NCBI GenBank assembly: GCA_963977015.1
Contig: CAXBMO010000006.1
Location: forward strand, 64,001 to 128,000
Direction: 5' to 3'
Length of the DNA stretch: 64,000 nucleotides
Source: an uncultured bacterium
GTDB taxonomy: Bacteria; Verrucomicrobiota; Verrucomicrobiia; Verrucomicrobiales; DEV007
Shown here: positions 46,284 to 52,726 of the stretch, in pieces
Layout of the letters: every line of letters begins with the position of its first letter
How positions within the stretch are numbered: position 1 is the first letter of the stretch
Notes under the pieces: generated by a model
Database searches by the model: none
What the model was told of the DNA's origin: nothing
The model's input: only the letters and a program-made list of their open reading frames with translations
Made by a program: the position numbers and the translations under genes

Positions 46284-46985
46284 TTAAGCCTCTTGTTCCG
46301 GTGGTGGAGGCGGAAGGAAGTAAAGCTTCTTCGCCTTGTAGTCCAACACGGCTCCGTATTCCTGAAGAAAGTCGTAACCGAGTATTCCATCGACCTGGAT
46401 CCCGAAATTGTTGATGCCGGTGGCCACGAGATTCGCGACGCGGAAAACGCGGCTCTCGAACTTGGACTTGCCGAGTTGGAAATTCTCGAGCTTGGCATCG
46501 CCAATTCCCATTTGGCGACCGTCGATGGTGTTGAGAACGTCGCCGGTTTGCTTGACGGTCAACCCGAGGACGTCAGCCACCGGGCCGTCCAGATAGGAGT
46601 AGGGAAGGTTGGTGTTGATGATGAAGGTGTGATCGCGGTCCGCGATTTTGACGATCACAATCATGGCGGATTTCTCATCATTGTAGGTTAGCGAGTCGCA
46701 ACCCACATTGGTGAGGTATTGCTCCATCGTCACATCAGCAGACGAGGTGGTTCGGCTCGGGTCGGTCGCCCACAGGTCGATGTATTCCTGATCGGCTGGG
46801 CTGAGCGAAGTGACGGGGACGGGCGCCGTTTTTCCACTTGCCAGTTTTAAGATGGCCTTGCCATCCTCGAGGCCTACGAGTTCGGCTTCAATCGCGCGAC
46901 CGTTGGTGTTCGTAAAGCTCCGGCTCTGGGCTTGGGCAAAACCCAGGCCAAGCGCGGTGATGATGAGAAATCTAATCACGTTCAT
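46284..46985 (-). CDS. Secreted SHD1 + retropepsin-fold protein, catalytic Asp replaced by Asn
   Basis: Signal peptide; SHD1-like 'RSFTNTNGRAIEAEL...SLSPADQEYI'; 'FIINTNLPYSY'; 'DGILGYDFL'. Confidence 0.75.
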   Translation of the reverse strand: MNVIRFLIITALGLGFAQAQSRSFTNTNGRAIEAELVGLEDGKAILKLASGKTAPVPVTSLSPADQEYIDLWATDPSRTTSSADVTMEQYLTNVGCDSLTYNDEKSAMIVIVKIADRDHTFIINTNLPYSYLDGPVADVLGLTVKQTGDVLNTIDGRQMGIGDAKLENFQLGKSKFESRVFRVANLVATGINNFGIQVDGILGYDFLQEYGAVLDYKAKKLYFLPPPPPEQEA

Positions 46986-46991
46986 GGGATT

Positions 46992-47708
46992 CTATTGTTC
47001 AGGAAGGAAGTAAAGGACCATGGATTCCCAATCGGCAATCCCGTCGAAATATTGCAGCACGTCGGCACCCATGATGCCGTTGGCTTCGATGCCGATCCGT
47101 TTCAGGCTGCAGACGCCAAGCTCGAAGCCTTCGATTTCGAGACCGGCGATGCCGAACGTTTTCGTCGCGCCGGCGTAAACCTTTTCAGTTCCTCCATCGA
47201 TCGTCGGAAAGTCGCCAAAATCGACATCGCGGTAAACTTCCACCTTGGTGGATTCGGCAACTTCGCTATCGACCATGCTGAGGGCCCGGCCGGAGTCGAA
47301 AATGAACGTGAAGGGTTTTCCGTTCACCGATACATCAACGAGAATCGACTTCCCTTTCTGGGTCAGCTTTGCCGAGGCGTAACCCTTCTCGGTCATGAAT
47401 TTGGACAATCCCATTCCACCGGCTGCGCTCTTCGCTGCGGCGCGGGTTCGTTCGGCGGGATCCCAATTTTGAATGTAGGATTGGTCGTCGATGCTCAGCG
47501 CGGCAATCGGCACGGGGATCTCGCTGAGGTTCGAGCGCCGGAGAATGGCCTTGTCGCCTTCCACGCGGATGAGGCGGGCGCGCAACTCTTTGCCCGACTG
47601 GCTTTTGAAGGTGCGATATTCAGCCGCGCCGGCTCCGGATTGGGCCAGGGCCGGAGTGGCAAGGCTCAGGAGAATGAGTCCTGAGTAGAGAAGGGGGATT
47701 TTCATCAT
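46992..47708 (-). CDS. Secreted SHD1 + retropepsin-like aspartic protease
   Basis: Signal peptide; SHD1-like 'RTFKSQSGKELRARL...LSIDDQSYI'; 'FIFDSG'; 'GIMGADVL'. Confidence 0.8.
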   Translation of the reverse strand: MMKIPLLYSGLILLSLATPALAQSGAGAAEYRTFKSQSGKELRARLIRVEGDKAILRRSNLSEIPVPIAALSIDDQSYIQNWDPAERTRAAAKSAAGGMGLSKFMTEKGYASAKLTQKGKSILVDVSVNGKPFTFIFDSGRALSMVDSEVAESTKVEVYRDVDFGDFPTIDGGTEKVYAGATKTFGIAGLEIEGFELGVCSLKRIGIEANGIMGADVLQYFDGIADWESMVLYFLPEQ

Positions 47709-47760
47709 GGGGATTGTCTCGCAACAAGGTTGAGGGATCAAGATTCGAATCGGGAGGATT

Positions 47761-49179
47761 TCAGGGAACGCGAACGAACATTTTTTGCGCCTGATAATCG
47801 ATGAGCGCGCCGAGCTTGCTGATGGCATCGAGCCCGAGAATGCCGTCGACATCGACCTGGCCCTGTCGCGCCGCCAGTTCGGGGAAGCGGAAGATCATGC
47901 AGGTGCGGATGGGGATGGCACCGGTGGAATTGGCGCCGTTGAGATCGACGATCCGGAGGTCCAGCGAGGGGAGGGGCTTGCCTGCGATGTTGAGGGTTTC
48001 GAGTTTGGCGAGATGGAGCTGGGTCTTCTTTCCCGCGACCATCATGAACTCGTTGAGAGGGGTTGCGGACATGCCGATGCGGGAGGCGGCGGCGCGATCG
48101 AGATAGGAAACGGGGAGGGTCGAGTTGAGCAGAAAGCGCAGTTTCTCGGTTCCCAGATTGAGCTCGAACGCGGCGACCGTGGAGTTGCCGTAGCCGTAGG
48201 GAACAGGGGCGAATTTTTCAGCTTCGAGAATCTCCCCAATCTTGACCGAACCCAGCCCTTTGCGGCGCGGATCCGTGGACCAGAGATCGAGATATTCGCG
48301 GTCGGCGTGGCTCAGCGAGGAAATCGGGACCTGGACCTGTTTGCCGCCATCGACGTTCAACGTCACCGAGGTCGACTCAACCGTGACGAGTTCGCCGAGC
48401 ATCTTGGCGCCGGTCTTGGTGGTGTATTCGCGCAATTCGCCAACGTCCGGCCCGGCGTTTTCCGTTTCGCCGCCTTTGCAATAGGCGACCCGCTTCTGCC
48501 AATCGATCATCGCGTCCATCAGCTGAAAAAAGTCGGCACCCAGAATTCCCTGGGCCTTGAACCCGATTTTAGGCAAGTCCGCAATCCCCATTTCCCAGGG
48601 CTCGAGATGCGTCTGACCGAGCGTGAAGGAGTCGAATACGCCGGCGATGACCTTTTCCAGGGAACCGTCGGGAAGGGGAAACTCGCCGAAAACGATTTCG
48701 CTGCGCTCCACACCGGCTTGAGCGGCCAGGTTGCTGTCGAAAATCGTGAGGAACTGGCCGGGATCGAGGAGGAACTCGAACGGCTTCTGGTTCACGGCGA
48801 CGTCGATGGTCAGGTTTCGGTCCCCGACCTTGAGTGGCGTCTGGGTGTAACCCGATTCGCGCAAAAATTCGGACAATCCCAGATCATCGAGCCATTCGGC
48901 CCGGCGTTCGTCCGGGTTCCACGCCTGGATGTAGGCTTGGTCATCGATGGACAGCGCTTGAATCGGGATCGTGACGTCCAGGCCCGAGGAGGTCCGGATT
49001 TGGGCGTCCTTCCCGTCGACCGAAAGAAGACGGGCCCGAACTTCCTTACCCGAAGCGCGACTGGTGAAGGTTCGGTATTCCGCTGCGCCCGCGAGCTCCG
49101 CCAGTGACGAAGCAATTGTGAGGCCCAACCATCCAACGACAAAAACGTAAGCAAGGTGCACGGTCGAGACGCTAGGCAT
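47761..49179 (-). CDS. Secreted tandem (SHD1-retropepsin)x2 protein
   Basis: Two SHD1-like domains; protease domain 1 'FLLDPG...GILGADFF', domain 2 'FLLNST...DGILGLDAI'. Confidence 0.78.
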   Translation of the reverse strand: MPSVSTVHLAYVFVVGWLGLTIASSLAELAGAAEYRTFTSRASGKEVRARLLSVDGKDAQIRTSSGLDVTIPIQALSIDDQAYIQAWNPDERRAEWLDDLGLSEFLRESGYTQTPLKVGDRNLTIDVAVNQKPFEFLLDPGQFLTIFDSNLAAQAGVERSEIVFGEFPLPDGSLEKVIAGVFDSFTLGQTHLEPWEMGIADLPKIGFKAQGILGADFFQLMDAMIDWQKRVAYCKGGETENAGPDVGELREYTTKTGAKMLGELVTVESTSVTLNVDGGKQVQVPISSLSHADREYLDLWSTDPRRKGLGSVKIGEILEAEKFAPVPYGYGNSTVAAFELNLGTEKLRFLLNSTLPVSYLDRAAASRIGMSATPLNEFMMVAGKKTQLHLAKLETLNIAGKPLPSLDLRIVDLNGANSTGAIPIRTCMIFRFPELAARQGQVDVDGILGLDAISKLGALIDYQAQKMFVRVP

Positions 49180-49209: not shown

Positions 49210-50229
49210 TCAAACTGCGGCCCGCATTCCGCCCCGAACCGTTCCCGCCGCCGTGGCCCCGTAGTTGGCCTCAAACCAGGGGGCCAGGGGACGGTTGTTG
49301 GGCGGGGAAAGCCAAATCCGGAGAATGTGGCGACGTTTTTCGGGATCGGGGTCATCCTCAAACTCGGTGCGACGATGATAGGTGACCCAATTGTTGAGAA
49401 AGAGCAGGTCTCCCGGCTGCTGATGAAATCGCAGGTGCAGCGTTTCATCGGCCGCGATTGCTTCAATCAGATCGAGGGCTTCCCGCTGGCGATCCGTCAT
49501 CGCGGGCAAATCCTCGCGTTGGTAGGCTCGCTCGATCAGGACACGAAGGAACGCCGACGCGAATACTCCGTCTTGAAACGAGAAAATCGGTTGCTCGCAA
49601 TACGGCTTTTCATTTCCCAAATCGACATTGTGGCGCAGGTAACGGTAGGGCGAGAACAGTTCCTCAAGGAGATCGGGTCGAGTTTCGAGAATGCGATTGT
49701 AAATCGCCATGGAGCTGACCACCTCGTTTTCGCCGCCGGATTTCGCCTGCTGCAGGCAGAAAAAGCCGATCACATCGCATCGATCCGTGTGAAAGCTGAG
49801 CTTTTTCCGGGTATTGGGACCACGGGCTCGGGCATCGCCTTCGGCAAAGCCTTCATCACGCACGCTGAACATCTTCTCTCCCTTGGCGCTCTGCGAAACC
49901 GGTGTTCCCAGGTGGCGGGAAATTCCCCAAAAGAGCCGTCGGCATTGTGCTTCGCTTAGGTTGTCAATCTCCAGGCCACGGATGATCGTGGCGCCTGAGC
50001 CGTTCTCGAGGGAATCCTGGATGGCGCTGAGTTGGCGAGCCAGGGTGGGGAGGGGAAAGTGGTCGTTGTCGAGTTCCTCCAGCGGCAGATCGGCTCCGGC
50101 CCGCAGCGCCGCATTCAGCTCATCCCGTTCCGATTCGTCCCAGTGGATCTCCCAATCGTTACGCTTGGTGAGTTCCGACGCAGTCCATGCTGCGGGGTGT
50201 GTGATGGGTTTGAAAGGCGCTTCAGGCAT
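49210..50229 (-). CDS. TauD/TfdA family Fe(II)/2-oxoglutarate dioxygenase
   Basis: 'FHTD' HxD motif, 'PGDLLFLNN...HRRT', 'RHILRIWL'. Confidence 0.9.
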   Translation of the reverse strand: MPEAPFKPITHPAAWTASELTKRNDWEIHWDESERDELNAALRAGADLPLEELDNDHFPLPTLARQLSAIQDSLENGSGATIIRGLEIDNLSEAQCRRLFWGISRHLGTPVSQSAKGEKMFSVRDEGFAEGDARARGPNTRKKLSFHTDRCDVIGFFCLQQAKSGGENEVVSSMAIYNRILETRPDLLEELFSPYRYLRHNVDLGNEKPYCEQPIFSFQDGVFASAFLRVLIERAYQREDLPAMTDRQREALDLIEAIAADETLHLRFHQQPGDLLFLNNWVTYHRRTEFEDDPDPEKRRHILRIWLSPPNNRPLAPWFEANYGATAAGTVRGGMRAAV

Positions 50230-50244
50230 CTGAAATTACCGAAC

Positions 50245-50658
50245 TTAAACACGCTTCCGACGCCGTTGCCAAGCAAGGAATCCGGTTGCGGCCAAGGCAA
50301 TGATGGCCCCAAAAAATTCCCGGGTCAGTTCGACTTCCGCATGATTGGGCGACATGCCGGACTTGGTCATCGTGAAGTGACCGCTTTGGAGATTGGCAAA
50401 GAATCCGGGGCCGGTTGTGATCAACTCGTAGATGCCATAGAGCGCAATCAGCGCATAGAGCGGCCAGGGAAACTTCTTCAACAGCGCCAGGAAAAATCCG
50501 ACCGCGACCAAACCGTAAAACACGATCCAGGCCCAAACATCAGCAAGGGATGGATCGACATAGATGTCGGGATTGTCATCTTCGTGCTGGAGCCAGGAAA
50601 ACCAGGCAAAGATGACAAGGCCAATGGCGTTCAGGGTAGGGAAGAGGAACTTCTTCAT
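50245..50658 (-). CDS. Small integral membrane protein (TMEM220-like)
   Basis: Four hydrophobic segments; 'Q...DNPD', 'REFFG'. Confidence 0.6.
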   Translation of the reverse strand: MKKFLFPTLNAIGLVIFAWFSWLQHEDDNPDIYVDPSLADVWAWIVFYGLVAVGFFLALLKKFPWPLYALIALYGIYELITTGPGFFANLQSGHFTMTKSGMSPNHAEVELTREFFGAIIALAATGFLAWQRRRKRV

Positions 50659-50840
50659 GCCTCTAATTTAGAGAGCTGTCCCCATTGTCGAGCGGCACTG
50701 CATCCGCGTTGTGGCAGTTGAGACCCTCTGTTTGAACCCGGCCTGGCGTCAGGGAGCCTGATTTCTCGGGAAATTGGTAACTTTGAACGGCTTACGGTGT
50801 CCAATTTCTGAACCTTTCAGAGAAGAAACAAGAAGACGAC

Positions 50841-51389
50841 GTGAGCGAAATAACTGACAACGAAAAGCACGAAGAGTTTATGCGGCTCTTTCTCAGCAAC
50901 GAACACGAGGTTCTGCGCTACGTCTTGGCCCTGGTCCCGAACCTTGCCGATGCACGGGACATCATTCAGGAAACGGCGGTTTCGTTGTGGAAACGCTTCG
51001 ACGATTACGACCCCGAGCAGCCGTTTGCGCCGTGGGCCTGTCGATTTGCGCTCAACAAAGTGCGCCACCATTGGCGGCGTGAAAAACGGCGCCAGCACCT
51101 CTTCGATGAAGAAACGATGGAATTTCTCGCAGCGCGCCGGACCGAACTCGCCGACGTGATGGACTATCGCCGCGAGTTTCTTCAGGAATGCCTCTGCAAG
51201 ATGCCGGAAAAATCGCGCTCCATTTTGACGGGCTACTACTTTCACGAGGAATCCGTGGAAGAGATTTCGGAAAAGACGGGTCGAACCGTCGAGGCAATTT
51301 ACAAAGCGCTCCAGCGCATCCGCCGTGGCCTGAGCCAATGCATCCAATATCGGATGGAGGCTGACTCCCAAGCGAAAACCGTAACATGA
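50841..51389 (+). CDS. ECF-type RNA polymerase sigma factor
   Basis: 'DARDIIQET..LW', 'F..WAC.FA.N', region 4 'AIYKALQRIRR.L..CI'. Confidence 0.92.
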   Translation: MSEITDNEKHEEFMRLFLSNEHEVLRYVLALVPNLADARDIIQETAVSLWKRFDDYDPEQPFAPWACRFALNKVRHHWRREKRRQHLFDEETMEFLAARRTELADVMDYRREFLQECLCKMPEKSRSILTGYYFHEESVEEISEKTGRTVEAIYKALQRIRRGLSQCIQYRMEADSQAKTVT

Positions 51390-52726
51390 AGTCGAACTCG
51401 CCAGAAATAGATGATCTCTTCTCCGCAGCCTGTGATGGGCGGGCGGATCAAGCGCAGATCGAGCGATTGCAGCGGGACCTCGCTCAGGATCCAGAGCTAC
51501 GGGACGAATTTCTCGCCTATGTGGACCTTCACGCGAGTTTGGCGGATGACTGCATTGGAGTGGACTCGGACGACGTGCTCGACTTTCCCGGTCCCGGAAA
51601 GTCCCAGCAGGGCCGCCAGGTCTTGATCGCCTCGATTGCGGGAATCGCCGCAGCCTTGGTTTTTGGGGTGATCTTTTGGGTTCTGACTCAGAGGGAAGCC
51701 GAGCCGAACTTCATCGCGGTGGTGACCAACGCTGAAGGAGCCCTTTGGGAGGGAGATGATGCGAGCGTAATGGTGGGATCGGCCTTGAAAGCTGGGCTGG
51801 TTGAGCTGTGCGAAGGTCGGGTTGAAATCGAGTTGGACAGTGGAGTTCACATCGCGATGGAAGGACCGTCGCGATTTGAATTGATCGATGAAACACGGGG
51901 CCGGCTTCATCAGGGCAAGCTTTCCGCGAACGTTCCGCCCGAGGGGATTGGATTTACGGTTGATACGCCAAACATGGCGGTCGTTGATTTGGGAACGGAG
52001 TTTGGCCTGAACGTGAACCAGAATGCTTCCGAGGTTCACGTGTTTAATGGCGAAGTTGAGGCGATCCTCAGCTCGGAACGGTCCATCGACCCGCTCAAGG
52101 AGCTGATCTCGACCAACGTCACCCGTCGGCTTGAGCGATCAGAAGGCCAACTCGAGACCGTAGCCTTCAACCCGGATCGCTTCACCAGACCTCCCGATTC
52201 CCTGCAGGGCGTTACCCGCGTGATGGGTGGAATCCGGGTTCTCCGAACGCAGCCGGAAACGGTCAGGAAGGGAACCTATCAGCACAACTACATCCTGCTT
52301 TTTCGGGAGCAGGCCCACATTGAGTTGGAAGATCCGCTCGAAGTGAGTTTAACGCGCCCGGGGCGCTACATCGTTGGGTTCGGCGAAGCAAACGGAAACG
52401 ATTTTCGCCATACCTTGAAAGTTGGCGAACGCATTGATTGCTACTTTTTGCACTTTGACACGGAAACGGAGGTCTCCACACGTTGCCGGGGTGCCATTCG
52501 CTTCGATCGGCAGATCGTCGCCGTGATCGCCGGAGGACGACAGATGGGAGCGACGGACGAGTTGCTTGGTGCCTGGTGCACGGCTTACGATCACCCCGAT
52601 ACACTTGATCGCGGTTTGGATAACGATGAAGTGGTGATCAGCGGCGATCGGCGAACCCTCACGCTCGATTGGGGAGTTGGTTCATCAGCCGATCAAATCC
52701 GCGTGCTCGTCGCGGCAGCCGATTGA
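51386..52726 (+). CDS. FecR-domain anti-sigma factor
   Basis: 4-bp overlap with the sigma gene; single TM helix; 'GFTVDTP...VVDLGTEFG', 'VHVFNGEVE'. Confidence 0.88.
   Translation: MKSNSPEIDDLFSAACDGRADQAQIERLQRDLAQDPELRDEFLAYVDLHASLADDCIGVDSDDVLDFPGPGKSQQGRQVLIASIAGIAAALVFGVIFWVLTQREAEPNFIAVVTNAEGALWEGDDASVMVGSALKAGLVELCEGRVEIELDSGVHIAMEGPSRFELIDETRGRLHQGKLSANVPPEGIGFTVDTPNMAVVDLGTEFGLNVNQNASEVHVFNGEVEAILSSERSIDPLKELISTNVTRRLERSEGQLETVAFNPDRFTRPPDSLQGVTRVMGGIRVLRTQPETVRKGTYQHNYILLFREQAHIELEDPLEVSLTRPGRYIVGFGEANGNDFRHTLKVGERIDCYFLHFDTETEVSTRCRGAIRFDRQIVAVIAGGRQMGATDELLGAWCTAYDHPDTLDRGLDNDEVVISGDRRTLTLDWGVGSSADQIRVLVAAAD

Follow-up and report, generated by a model that had tools for sequence, protein, structure and literature searches.

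What can be made of a retropepsin-like active site that has only one catalytic aspartate, the second having given way, apparently for good, to an asparagine? The question is raised by three neighboring genes, which we will term A, B, and C, in a stretch of 64,000 nucleotides from an uncultured bacterium of the Verrucomicrobiales (the whole of this stretch is what we call the window). An earlier note on this DNA had described three co-oriented genes that each combine an SHD1 domain with a retropepsin-like domain, once or twice per chain, and the open reading frames (ORFs), the Pfam matches, and an alignment of the modules confirm this description. We propose that A, B, and C are Sec-exported proteins in which an SH3-like SHD1 domain is followed by a retropepsin-fold lobe, and that the lobes would form pepsin-like two-lobe units: lobe 1 (the N-terminal half of A, or B) would hold the catalytic Asp and lobe 2 (the C-terminal half of A, or C) would hold Asn. 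The Asp of lobe 2 would have changed to Asn once, in the ancestor of the clade, and the Asn would have been kept since. The unit would be encoded twice, as one chain (A) and as a tightly coupled gene pair, B then C, whose products would pair as a heterodimer with the Asp (D) loop facing the Asn (N) loop. Finally, the unit would be a peptide- or ligand-binding pseudoprotease that has lost canonical two-Asp proteolysis. We hold this explanation, taken whole, with modest confidence, as slightly on the probable side.

The domain assignment was borne out by Pfam and by the fold matches of the modeled A and C proteins (see below). With cut-offs of 24.3 bits for Asp_protease_2 (PF13650) and 23.7 bits for SHD1 (PF03983), A matches both families in two stretches each (55 bits and 32.9 bits, respectively). 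B matches Asp_protease_2 at 34.2 bits. Its SHD1 domain reaches 20.4 bits, under the cut-off, yet the conserved AAEYRTF...RARL motifs line up with those in the SHD1 of A. C matches SHD1 at 25.2 bits, and its Asp_protease_2 match is just under the cut-off (23.4 bits) or, in a whole-genome scan, over it (24.8 bits). Other resources returned little: NCBIfam has no family for A or B and gave only a sub-threshold RimP match for C, and a phmmer search of A against the PDB sequences gave no match. All three proteins begin with what we judge by eye to be signal peptides (ending ...ASSLA|EL in A, ...ATPALA|QS in B, and ...GFAQA|QS in C).

When the four modules are aligned, a single column contains the catalytic position of LLDPGQ (N-terminal module of A), IFDSGR (B), LLNSTL (C-terminal module of A), and IINTNL (C), so that, with both halves of A first, followed by B and C, the column reads D, N, D, N. 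The N-terminal module of A is 41% identical to B (96/233), the C-terminal module is 32% identical to C (66/208), and the cross pairs are 18–30% identical; the motifs that had been quoted as shared between the halves of A and B or C are all present in this alignment. In clan AA the active site consists of two psi-loops with one Asp from each (PMC2761423, PMC4140852), and we took hydrophobic-hydrophobic-Asp-Thr/Ser-Gly-Ser/Thr/Ala in every lobe as the definition of an active retropepsin (PMC4140852). All four modules depart from this motif: lobe 1 of A has Pro at +1 and Gln at +3, B has Arg at +3, and lobe 2 of A and C have neither the Asp nor the Gly. Nor is there one catalytic Asp per lobe or subunit, as lobe 2 has Asn in all of the N-type sequences that we found. 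The hydrophobic-hydrophobic-Gly motif of the psi-loop is present in all four modules (GILGAD, GIMGAD, GILGLD, and GILGYD).

Is the Asn a peculiarity of this genome? A word-indexed search identified 7 relatives of C and 8 relatives of A, which were aligned with the respective query. N124 and T125 of C are invariant in all 8 C-type sequences, and the LPYSY that follows is also conserved (the alignment extends to 47–50% identity and includes one fragment of 140 amino acids). N352 of A is invariant in 9/9 sequences, down to 34% identity, and in 11/11 if P0025 and P0026 are added. Further C-type sequences with Asn are P0023, P0024, P0027, and L051, plus P0120, which is a C-like outlier on a long branch; overall, 11/11 stand-alone C-type representatives have it. 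The two N-type lineages have the motif N-x-x-L-P-x-S-Y-x-D in common. At the DNA level, which was inspected for 10 N-type lobes, 8 lobes use AAC for the Asn and the other 2 use AAT. A profile of the N-type lobe was also run with HMMER, exhaustively, against 1.84 billion representatives and gave 3191 matches at E values of up to 1e-3. Among the 150 matches listed, 10 belong to the Asp/Asn (D/N) clade and all of these have Asn (the C-like P0003, P0023, P0024, P0027, and P0120 and the A-like P0014, P0017, P0019, P0025, and P0026). The earlier note had held that the Asn is kept in both diverged copies and had named variability at this position as the outcome to fear; among all relatives found, it is invariant in both N-type lineages.

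The Asp of B is similarly fixed: D138 and G140 are invariant in the 5 aligned B-type sequences, which keep D-[ST]-G, and L051 also has the Asp. The Asp in the first lobe of A is not invariant. Of 11 A-type sequences, 9 have Asp, one has Asn (P0013), and one has Glu (P0014, the orthologue from G001), and the residue at +1 is mostly Pro rather than Thr or Ser. Judged by these alignments, the recurrence of the D/N pattern in every orthologue found is not due to chance.

To place the lobes relative to each other, we have a quick IQ-TREE phylogeny of 81 lobes (147 columns, unrooted, with support from the Shimodaira-Hasegawa-like approximate likelihood ratio test). The N-terminal lobe of A forms a clade with B (support of 99) and the C-terminal lobe of A forms a clade with C (support of 92); all four groups fall together with a support of 82, apart from the lobes of relatives that have Asp in both lobes (D/D). 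Because the lobes of A group with B and with C in this way, the tree indicates that Asp changed to Asn once, in a two-lobe unit that was already asymmetric, before the fused and split forms diverged. The earlier note had also read a pattern of fusion and fission from the locus. The single shared origin of the fused and split units is supported by the tree, but the direction of the change is not given by it, because the tree is unrooted and short. As most relatives are fused, fission is the simpler reading, and we infer that B and C arose by the fission of a fused ancestor.

If B and C are halves of one unit, then they should be found together. A D-type gene is directly upstream of the stand-alone N-type gene in 6/6 genomes with context (the window's own genome, G000, and G003, G001, G002, G331, and G087), and no N-type gene without a D-type partner, which had been named as a finding that would count against pairing, was seen. 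(This count does not use the contexts of P0005, P0008, P0009, P0023, P0024, P0027, and P0120, and the loci L042–L045 probably duplicate four of these genomes and were counted once.) In G331 and G087, which represent two further genera, the pair consists of a DTG gene followed at once by an NTG or NTA gene. At L045, the reading frames of B and C overlap, and the neighboring genes are quite different from those in the window. The linkage does not extend to A, and the idea that the three genes form an obligate array fails. Within genus g1, G003 has A-B-C as in the window genome, in G001 A and B-C are on separate contigs, and in G002 (92% complete) B-C is present and A was not found, with no remnant of A between the TauD-family gene and B. 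(In the place of A, G002 has an ORF of about 290 codons, L044:4997-5890, that looks methyltransferase-like by eye.) In G390 (69% complete), only an A-type gene was seen. So far, the D/N clade has been seen only in marine Verrucomicrobiales.

These data bear on the possibility that A, B, and C are decaying relics of proteases without a selected function. The degenerate catalytic motifs (DPG, NST, and NTN) and the loss of the lobe-1 Asp in two A orthologues are what decay might look like. However, the reading frames are intact in every genome examined, 83 columns of A are invariant across 9 sequences at identities down to 34%, the Asn is invariant while its codon changes synonymously, and the gene order is held across different neighborhoods. 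We consider decay to be very improbable.

Do the two lobes form one body? An AlphaFold2 (AF2) model of A, built from 9 orthologues, has a mean predicted local distance difference test (pLDDT) of 80.3 and a predicted template modeling score of 0.72. Residues 110–472 of the model align to whole chains of pepsin and endothiapepsin (Z of 13–14, root-mean-square deviation (rmsd) of 3.2–4.2 Å, 221–247 residues; for endothiapepsin, Z of 13.4 and rmsd of 3.3 Å over 226 residues), and both lobes of pepsin are matched by lobes of A. As A aligns to entire pepsin chains, its two lobes are predicted to pack as in pepsin. Thus, modeling of the fused protein, which the earlier note had suggested as a check, gave a pepsin-like two-lobe body (Z of about 13). 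The best structural match is PDB 9iy9 (Z of 14.1, rmsd of 4.2 Å, 247 residues, model residues 107–470), and structures of the histo-aspartic protease (HAP) are also among the matches. For C, the AF2 model (pLDDT of 72.7) matches the rickettsial protease APRc (5c9f; E = 3.7e-6, template modeling score of 0.66 on the target), 9iy9, DDI1, and the proteases of human immunodeficiency virus (HIV) and equine infectious anemia virus. The sole significant match of the N-type lobe profile among PDB sequences is 9iy9_A (E = 4e-5), where the Asn lies over the Asp of DTG.

One part of A is peculiar to it. Its lobe 2 has an insertion at residues ~417–438 that is missing from C-type proteins; all 9/9 orthologues share C427, M428, R431, P433, E434, and R438, and the insertion is modeled with a pLDDT of 55–58. 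An invariant Cys that stands alone, as C427 does, is puzzling in an exported protein.

The B+C pair, modeled as mature chains with our own alignments, gave complex scores of 0.81, 0.80, and 0.79, against 0.00, 0.00, and 0.57 for controls, which supports binding (this mark was reached by 58/80 solved complexes and by 2/110 mismatched pairs). Contact agreement among the runs was at least 70% and the pLDDT of the partner was at least 83. The predicted interface includes the IFDSG loop of B (residues 136–140), the IINTNLP loop of C (residues 122–128), and the C-terminal strands of both chains (B223–228 with C211–217), so that, as the earlier note had anticipated, the D and N loops are both at the interface. 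In all, none of the three outcomes that the earlier note had named as contrary to its reading was observed. As predictions, the models of A and of B+C both have packed lobes, facing active-site loops, and a platform of terminal beta strands. Both chains also contribute residues of SHD1 and of the linker to the B+C interface. This fits poorly with the suggestion that SHD1 is a free arm that recruits substrates, although such an arm would still be possible.

Since the D loop and the N loop would face each other, the site would hold a single carboxylate, and in two A-type orthologues it would hold none, or a Glu. In addition, the Thr or Ser of the fireman's grip, by which the two active-site loops are clasped through hydrogen bonds, and the small residue after the Gly are changed in the D/N clade. 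Sites with at most one carboxylate and altered loops, whose loops are nevertheless conserved, lead us to infer a function that is under selection but is not canonical. Instead of ordinary proteases, we are probably dealing with binders of peptides or with enzymes of an unusual, one-carboxylate kind. The most likely function seems to us to be the binding of an extended peptide, or of another ligand, without efficient cleavage. This is clearest for A, which we read as a pseudoprotease because the Asp is replaced in 2 of 11 orthologues and the Thr or Ser is mostly Pro; B-C may keep some weak or altered single-Asp chemistry.

Several of our results weigh against this explanation. The invariant Asp and Gly of B and the strongly conserved motif of lobe 2 would likewise be expected of a working, altered site, and the Asp is retained in 9 of the 11 A orthologues. 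As to the complex, the control that scored 0.57 was the one in which C was kept and B was swapped for an unrelated protein, so C is sticky in the model. The passing score of B+C may reflect the likeness of the pair to solved retropepsin dimers, and as a modeling result it does not tell a heterodimer from homodimers.

Homodimers matter because of a second possibility, which is that a B-B homodimer is the real protease and that C is a dead paralogue that titrates B into inactive B-C, as a dominant-negative regulator. B does keep its Asp and Gly and is predicted to be bound by C, and related single-module proteins exist: genes for SHD1 followed by a DTGA lobe (264–301 codons, stop to stop) are present in 6/6 genomes of genus g34 (L057–L059 and L061–L063), and these are presumed to be the homodimeric form of the family. 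This seems unlikely, because the 6-nucleotide gap between the B stop and the C start and the constant order of B then C suggest synthesis at about 1:1, because the fused paralogue locks D and N lobes in one chain, and because the divergence of lobes 1 and 2 into complementary partners began before the duplication that separated A from B/C. Also, B has DSGR instead of the canonical DTGA.

Third, B-C (and perhaps A) could be an active hydrolase, in which the Asp would act as general base and acid and the amide of the Asn would polarize the scissile carbonyl or stabilize the oxyanion. Such a site would resemble the Glu/Gln dyad of the eqolisins or the one-Asp site of Plasmodium HAP. It would account for the presence of Asn in every N-type sequence despite synonymous changes of its codon, for D-[ST]-G in 5/5 B-type proteins, for the Thr at +1 in 8/8 C-type proteins, with which a fireman's grip between the active-site loops could persist, and for the flap-like hairpins that are conserved in both lobes. 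Yet two A orthologues have lost the carboxylate, and the residue after the Gly has become Arg, Gln, or Lys in lobe 1, with Leu-Pro in lobe 2, which amounts to deep remodeling of the pocket. Furthermore, the loss of one Asp abolishes the activity of retropepsin-like enzymes, as in the D25N mutant of HIV protease. Similarly, the D140A mutant of APRc was described as having lost both autoprocessing and substrate cleavage (PMC4140852). We therefore regard a hydrolase as possible but doubtful. A bolder form of this idea, to which we give a little less credence still, is that Asp/Asn is a working dyad, the retropepsin-fold counterpart of the eqolisin Glu/Gln, with the Asn serving as a permanently protonated Asp that would be active at the alkaline pH of sea water. 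If so, a two-carboxylate site would be off at that pH, the clade would be a new mechanistic class of peptidase, and the class would have been caught in nature both as a heterodimer and as a fused single chain.

Finally, the proteins could cut themselves once, at the Asn, as asparagine lyases do, with the facing Asp activating the Asn. The sole support for this is the juxtaposition of Asp and invariant Asn, together with the precedent of nodavirus coat proteins, in which an Asp assists autocleavage at an Asn. The Asn is in a buried loop of the core, where a cut would split the fold; the residue after it varies (Thr, Ser, Pro, or Ala); and no computed result points to cleavage. We think that this is the least probable of the possibilities considered here.

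How unusual is the two-lobe architecture within its own domain family? Two lobes per chain are not special, since tandem D/D proteins are the norm. Of the representatives listed, 140 lie outside the D/N clade; 122 of these are D/D proteins with two domains, 6 have four domains, all with Asp, 6 have a gapped lobe, 1 has a single domain, and 5 have a residue other than Asp in at least one lobe, sporadically (P0057, P0060, P0111, P0127, and P0144). Elsewhere in the same family and order, 9 fused ORFs of other genera were examined, and 18/18 of their lobes carry D-T/S-G. Judging from these sequences, the D/N clade is set apart by the fixed Asn, the remodeled loops, and the existence of a split version. 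The four-lobe chains (P0028, P0032, P0056, P0068, P0074, and P0122) have D-T/S-G or something close to it in all lobes and amount to two pepsin-like units per protein; in P0057, two lobes are intact and the other two are degenerate. The window's own genome also encodes a canonical tandem PF13650 protein (G000:C4:127584-127847), with a DTGA lobe, a DTGS lobe, a signal-peptide-like N-terminus, and no SHD1; a partial paralogue of it lies at a contig edge (G000:C42:203-466).

SHD1 has a distribution of its own. Pfam found it in 1 of the 5 fused D/D relatives that were scanned (P0031) and in the single-module L058, and most of the relatives' matches in the search of other genomes were to SHD1 only. 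SHD1-like segments are at the head of other ORFs at 15 places in the window's own genome outside the window (such as C11:11699-11917, C2:435431-435658, and C1:15865-16068). With so many ORFs headed by it, SHD1 seems to be an N-terminal module in general use among the exported proteins of this organism.

In the literature that we searched, neither an SHD1-retropepsin protein nor a retropepsin-like pair with conserved Asp and Asn is described, but several known systems share features with A, B, and C. The closest in domain family and layout are the bacterial tandem PF13650 proteins, which also have two lobes per chain but have Asp in both, as canonical D-T/S-G-A, whereas lobe 2 of the D/N clade always has Asn and both loops are remodeled. 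The closest in structure is 9iy9, a 420-residue protein of Bacteroides fragilis that is annotated as "putative endopeptidase" and "Exported protein"; it is likewise exported with two retropepsin-like lobes per chain, and its first lobe has DTG where lobe 2 of A, or C, has Asn. We found no paper on 9iy9 (a paper on the B. fragilis PAR2 protease deals with a serine protease). APRc, or ApRick, of Rickettsia conorii (PDB 5c9b, 5c9d, and 5c9f), which is the best fold match of C and, along with RloA by analogy, the closest enzyme that has been characterized, likewise has a bacterial lobe of retropepsin-like type and the hydrophobic-hydrophobic-Gly motif; it differs in being, as described, a membrane-embedded and active homodimer with DTGA (PMC4140852).

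RloA and RimB of Pseudomonas are described as having signal peptides and a retropepsin-like dimer with active-site loops at the interface, as predicted here, on a non-interdigitated beta-sheet platform that is reminiscent of pepsins (PMC12239564). In that account they differ from B-C in that they are homodimers with DTGA in both subunits, cleave Glu-rich sequences, and have no SHD1 (PMC12239564); they also belong to another Pfam family, which A, B, and C do not match. Family A1 (pepsin) shares with the model of A a bilobal body with one psi-loop per lobe (PMC2761423). The likeness is only architectural: A, B, and C had no match to PF00026 at E values of up to 1, and the D/N lobes are recognizably retropepsin-like, are still related to each other, and are also split in two genes.

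On the pepsin fold, HAP and the inactive pepsin homologues offer precedents both for the loss of one Asp and for binding without proteolysis. TAXI-I is an inactive or one-Asp member of the pepsin family that is cited in PMC2761423. In another fold, the Csp subtilisin-like proteases of Clostridioides difficile are active and dead paralogues of one protease family side by side; they are described as having a subtilisin fold, a place in the spore germination pathway, and no shared two-lobe active site (PMC7200643).

The features of the locus are listed in Table 1. A and B are separated by 52 nucleotides. The frame of B is open upstream to an ATG at 47852 (window 47709-47852), overlapping the end of A. 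This extension is probably not translated, because the start at 47708 yields a signal peptide and fits the length of B orthologues in databases (237–238 amino acids).

Table 1. Genes, domains, and catalytic codons of the D/N locus (window positions)
Feature	Positions	Strand	Basis
Gene A, exported fused SHD1 / lobe 1 (DPG) / SHD1 / lobe 2 (NST), 472 aa	47761..49179	-	ORF, translation, Pfam, AF2 model
Gene B, exported SHD1 + D-type lobe (IFDSGR), 238 aa	46992..47708	-	ORF, translation, Pfam, D138/G140 conservation, tree
Gene C, exported SHD1 + N-type lobe (IINTNLPYSY), 233 aa	46284..46985	-	ORF, translation, Pfam, AF2 model
SHD1 domain 1 of A, residues 32-86	48922..49086	-	Pfam PF03983, best stretch
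Retropepsin-like lobe 1 of A, D-type, residues ~99-240	48460..48885	-	Pfam stretch 126-217; domain envelope 99-240
SHD1 domain 2 of A, residues ~247-305, limits approximate	48265..48441	-	Second Pfam SHD1 stretch, not placed by Pfam; alignment with SHD1 of C; SHD1-only matches to residues 246-305
Retropepsin-like lobe 2 of A, N-type, residues ~311-472	47764..48249	-	Domain envelope; N-type profile alignment to 9iy9_A
Codon of D139 (GAT), LLDPGQ, lobe-1 catalytic column of A	48763..48765	-	Four-module alignment
Codon of N352 (AAC), LLNSTL, lobe-2 catalytic column of A	48124..48126	-	Four-module alignment
Codon of D138 (GAC) of B	47295..47297	-	Four-module alignment
Codon of N124 (AAC) of C	46614..46616	-	Four-module alignment
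A-type-specific insertion in lobe 2, residues ~417-438, PIRTCMIFRFPELAAR	47866..47931	-	Absent from C-type; invariant Cys427
TauD/TfdA-family dioxygenase gene, co-directional, upstream of A	49210..50229	-	Pfam PF02668; synteny in G003 and G002

Upstream of A (window 49210-52726), a TMEM220-like gene and the TauD-family gene run in the same direction as A, and genes for an extracytoplasmic function (ECF) sigma factor and a FecR-type anti-sigma factor are divergent from them. The TauD-family gene ends 30 nucleotides before the start of A, so the two are possibly on one transcript. A consensus scan at the operon boundaries found no promoter-like site and a single terminator-like site on the opposite strand, and is uninformative about the operon. 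We considered whether the TauD, ECF sigma, and FecR neighbors are functionally linked to A, B, and C and hint at a substrate, and rejected this because their synteny is confined to the genus (G003 and G002); L045, L043, and L003 have other neighbors.

A long-standing model of aspartic protease evolution holds that a one-lobe homodimer gave rise, by duplication and divergence, to the fused two-lobe pepsin (PMC2761423). One bacterial family shows such stages together: a single-module D form, fused D/D proteins, a diverged D+N pair, and a fused D/N paralogue, with the last two co-occurring in one genome. If A, B, and C are no more than pseudoproteases with some unknown ligand, then the known set of dead-enzyme paralogues would gain a neat entry of modest weight. 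More broadly, they let one ask what role an invariant Asn has in nature opposite a single Asp, be it binding without cutting or an unrecognized one-carboxylate chemistry. If the site only binds, then it would be a ready-made substrate trap from nature, built on a fold to which drug design has devoted intensive study.

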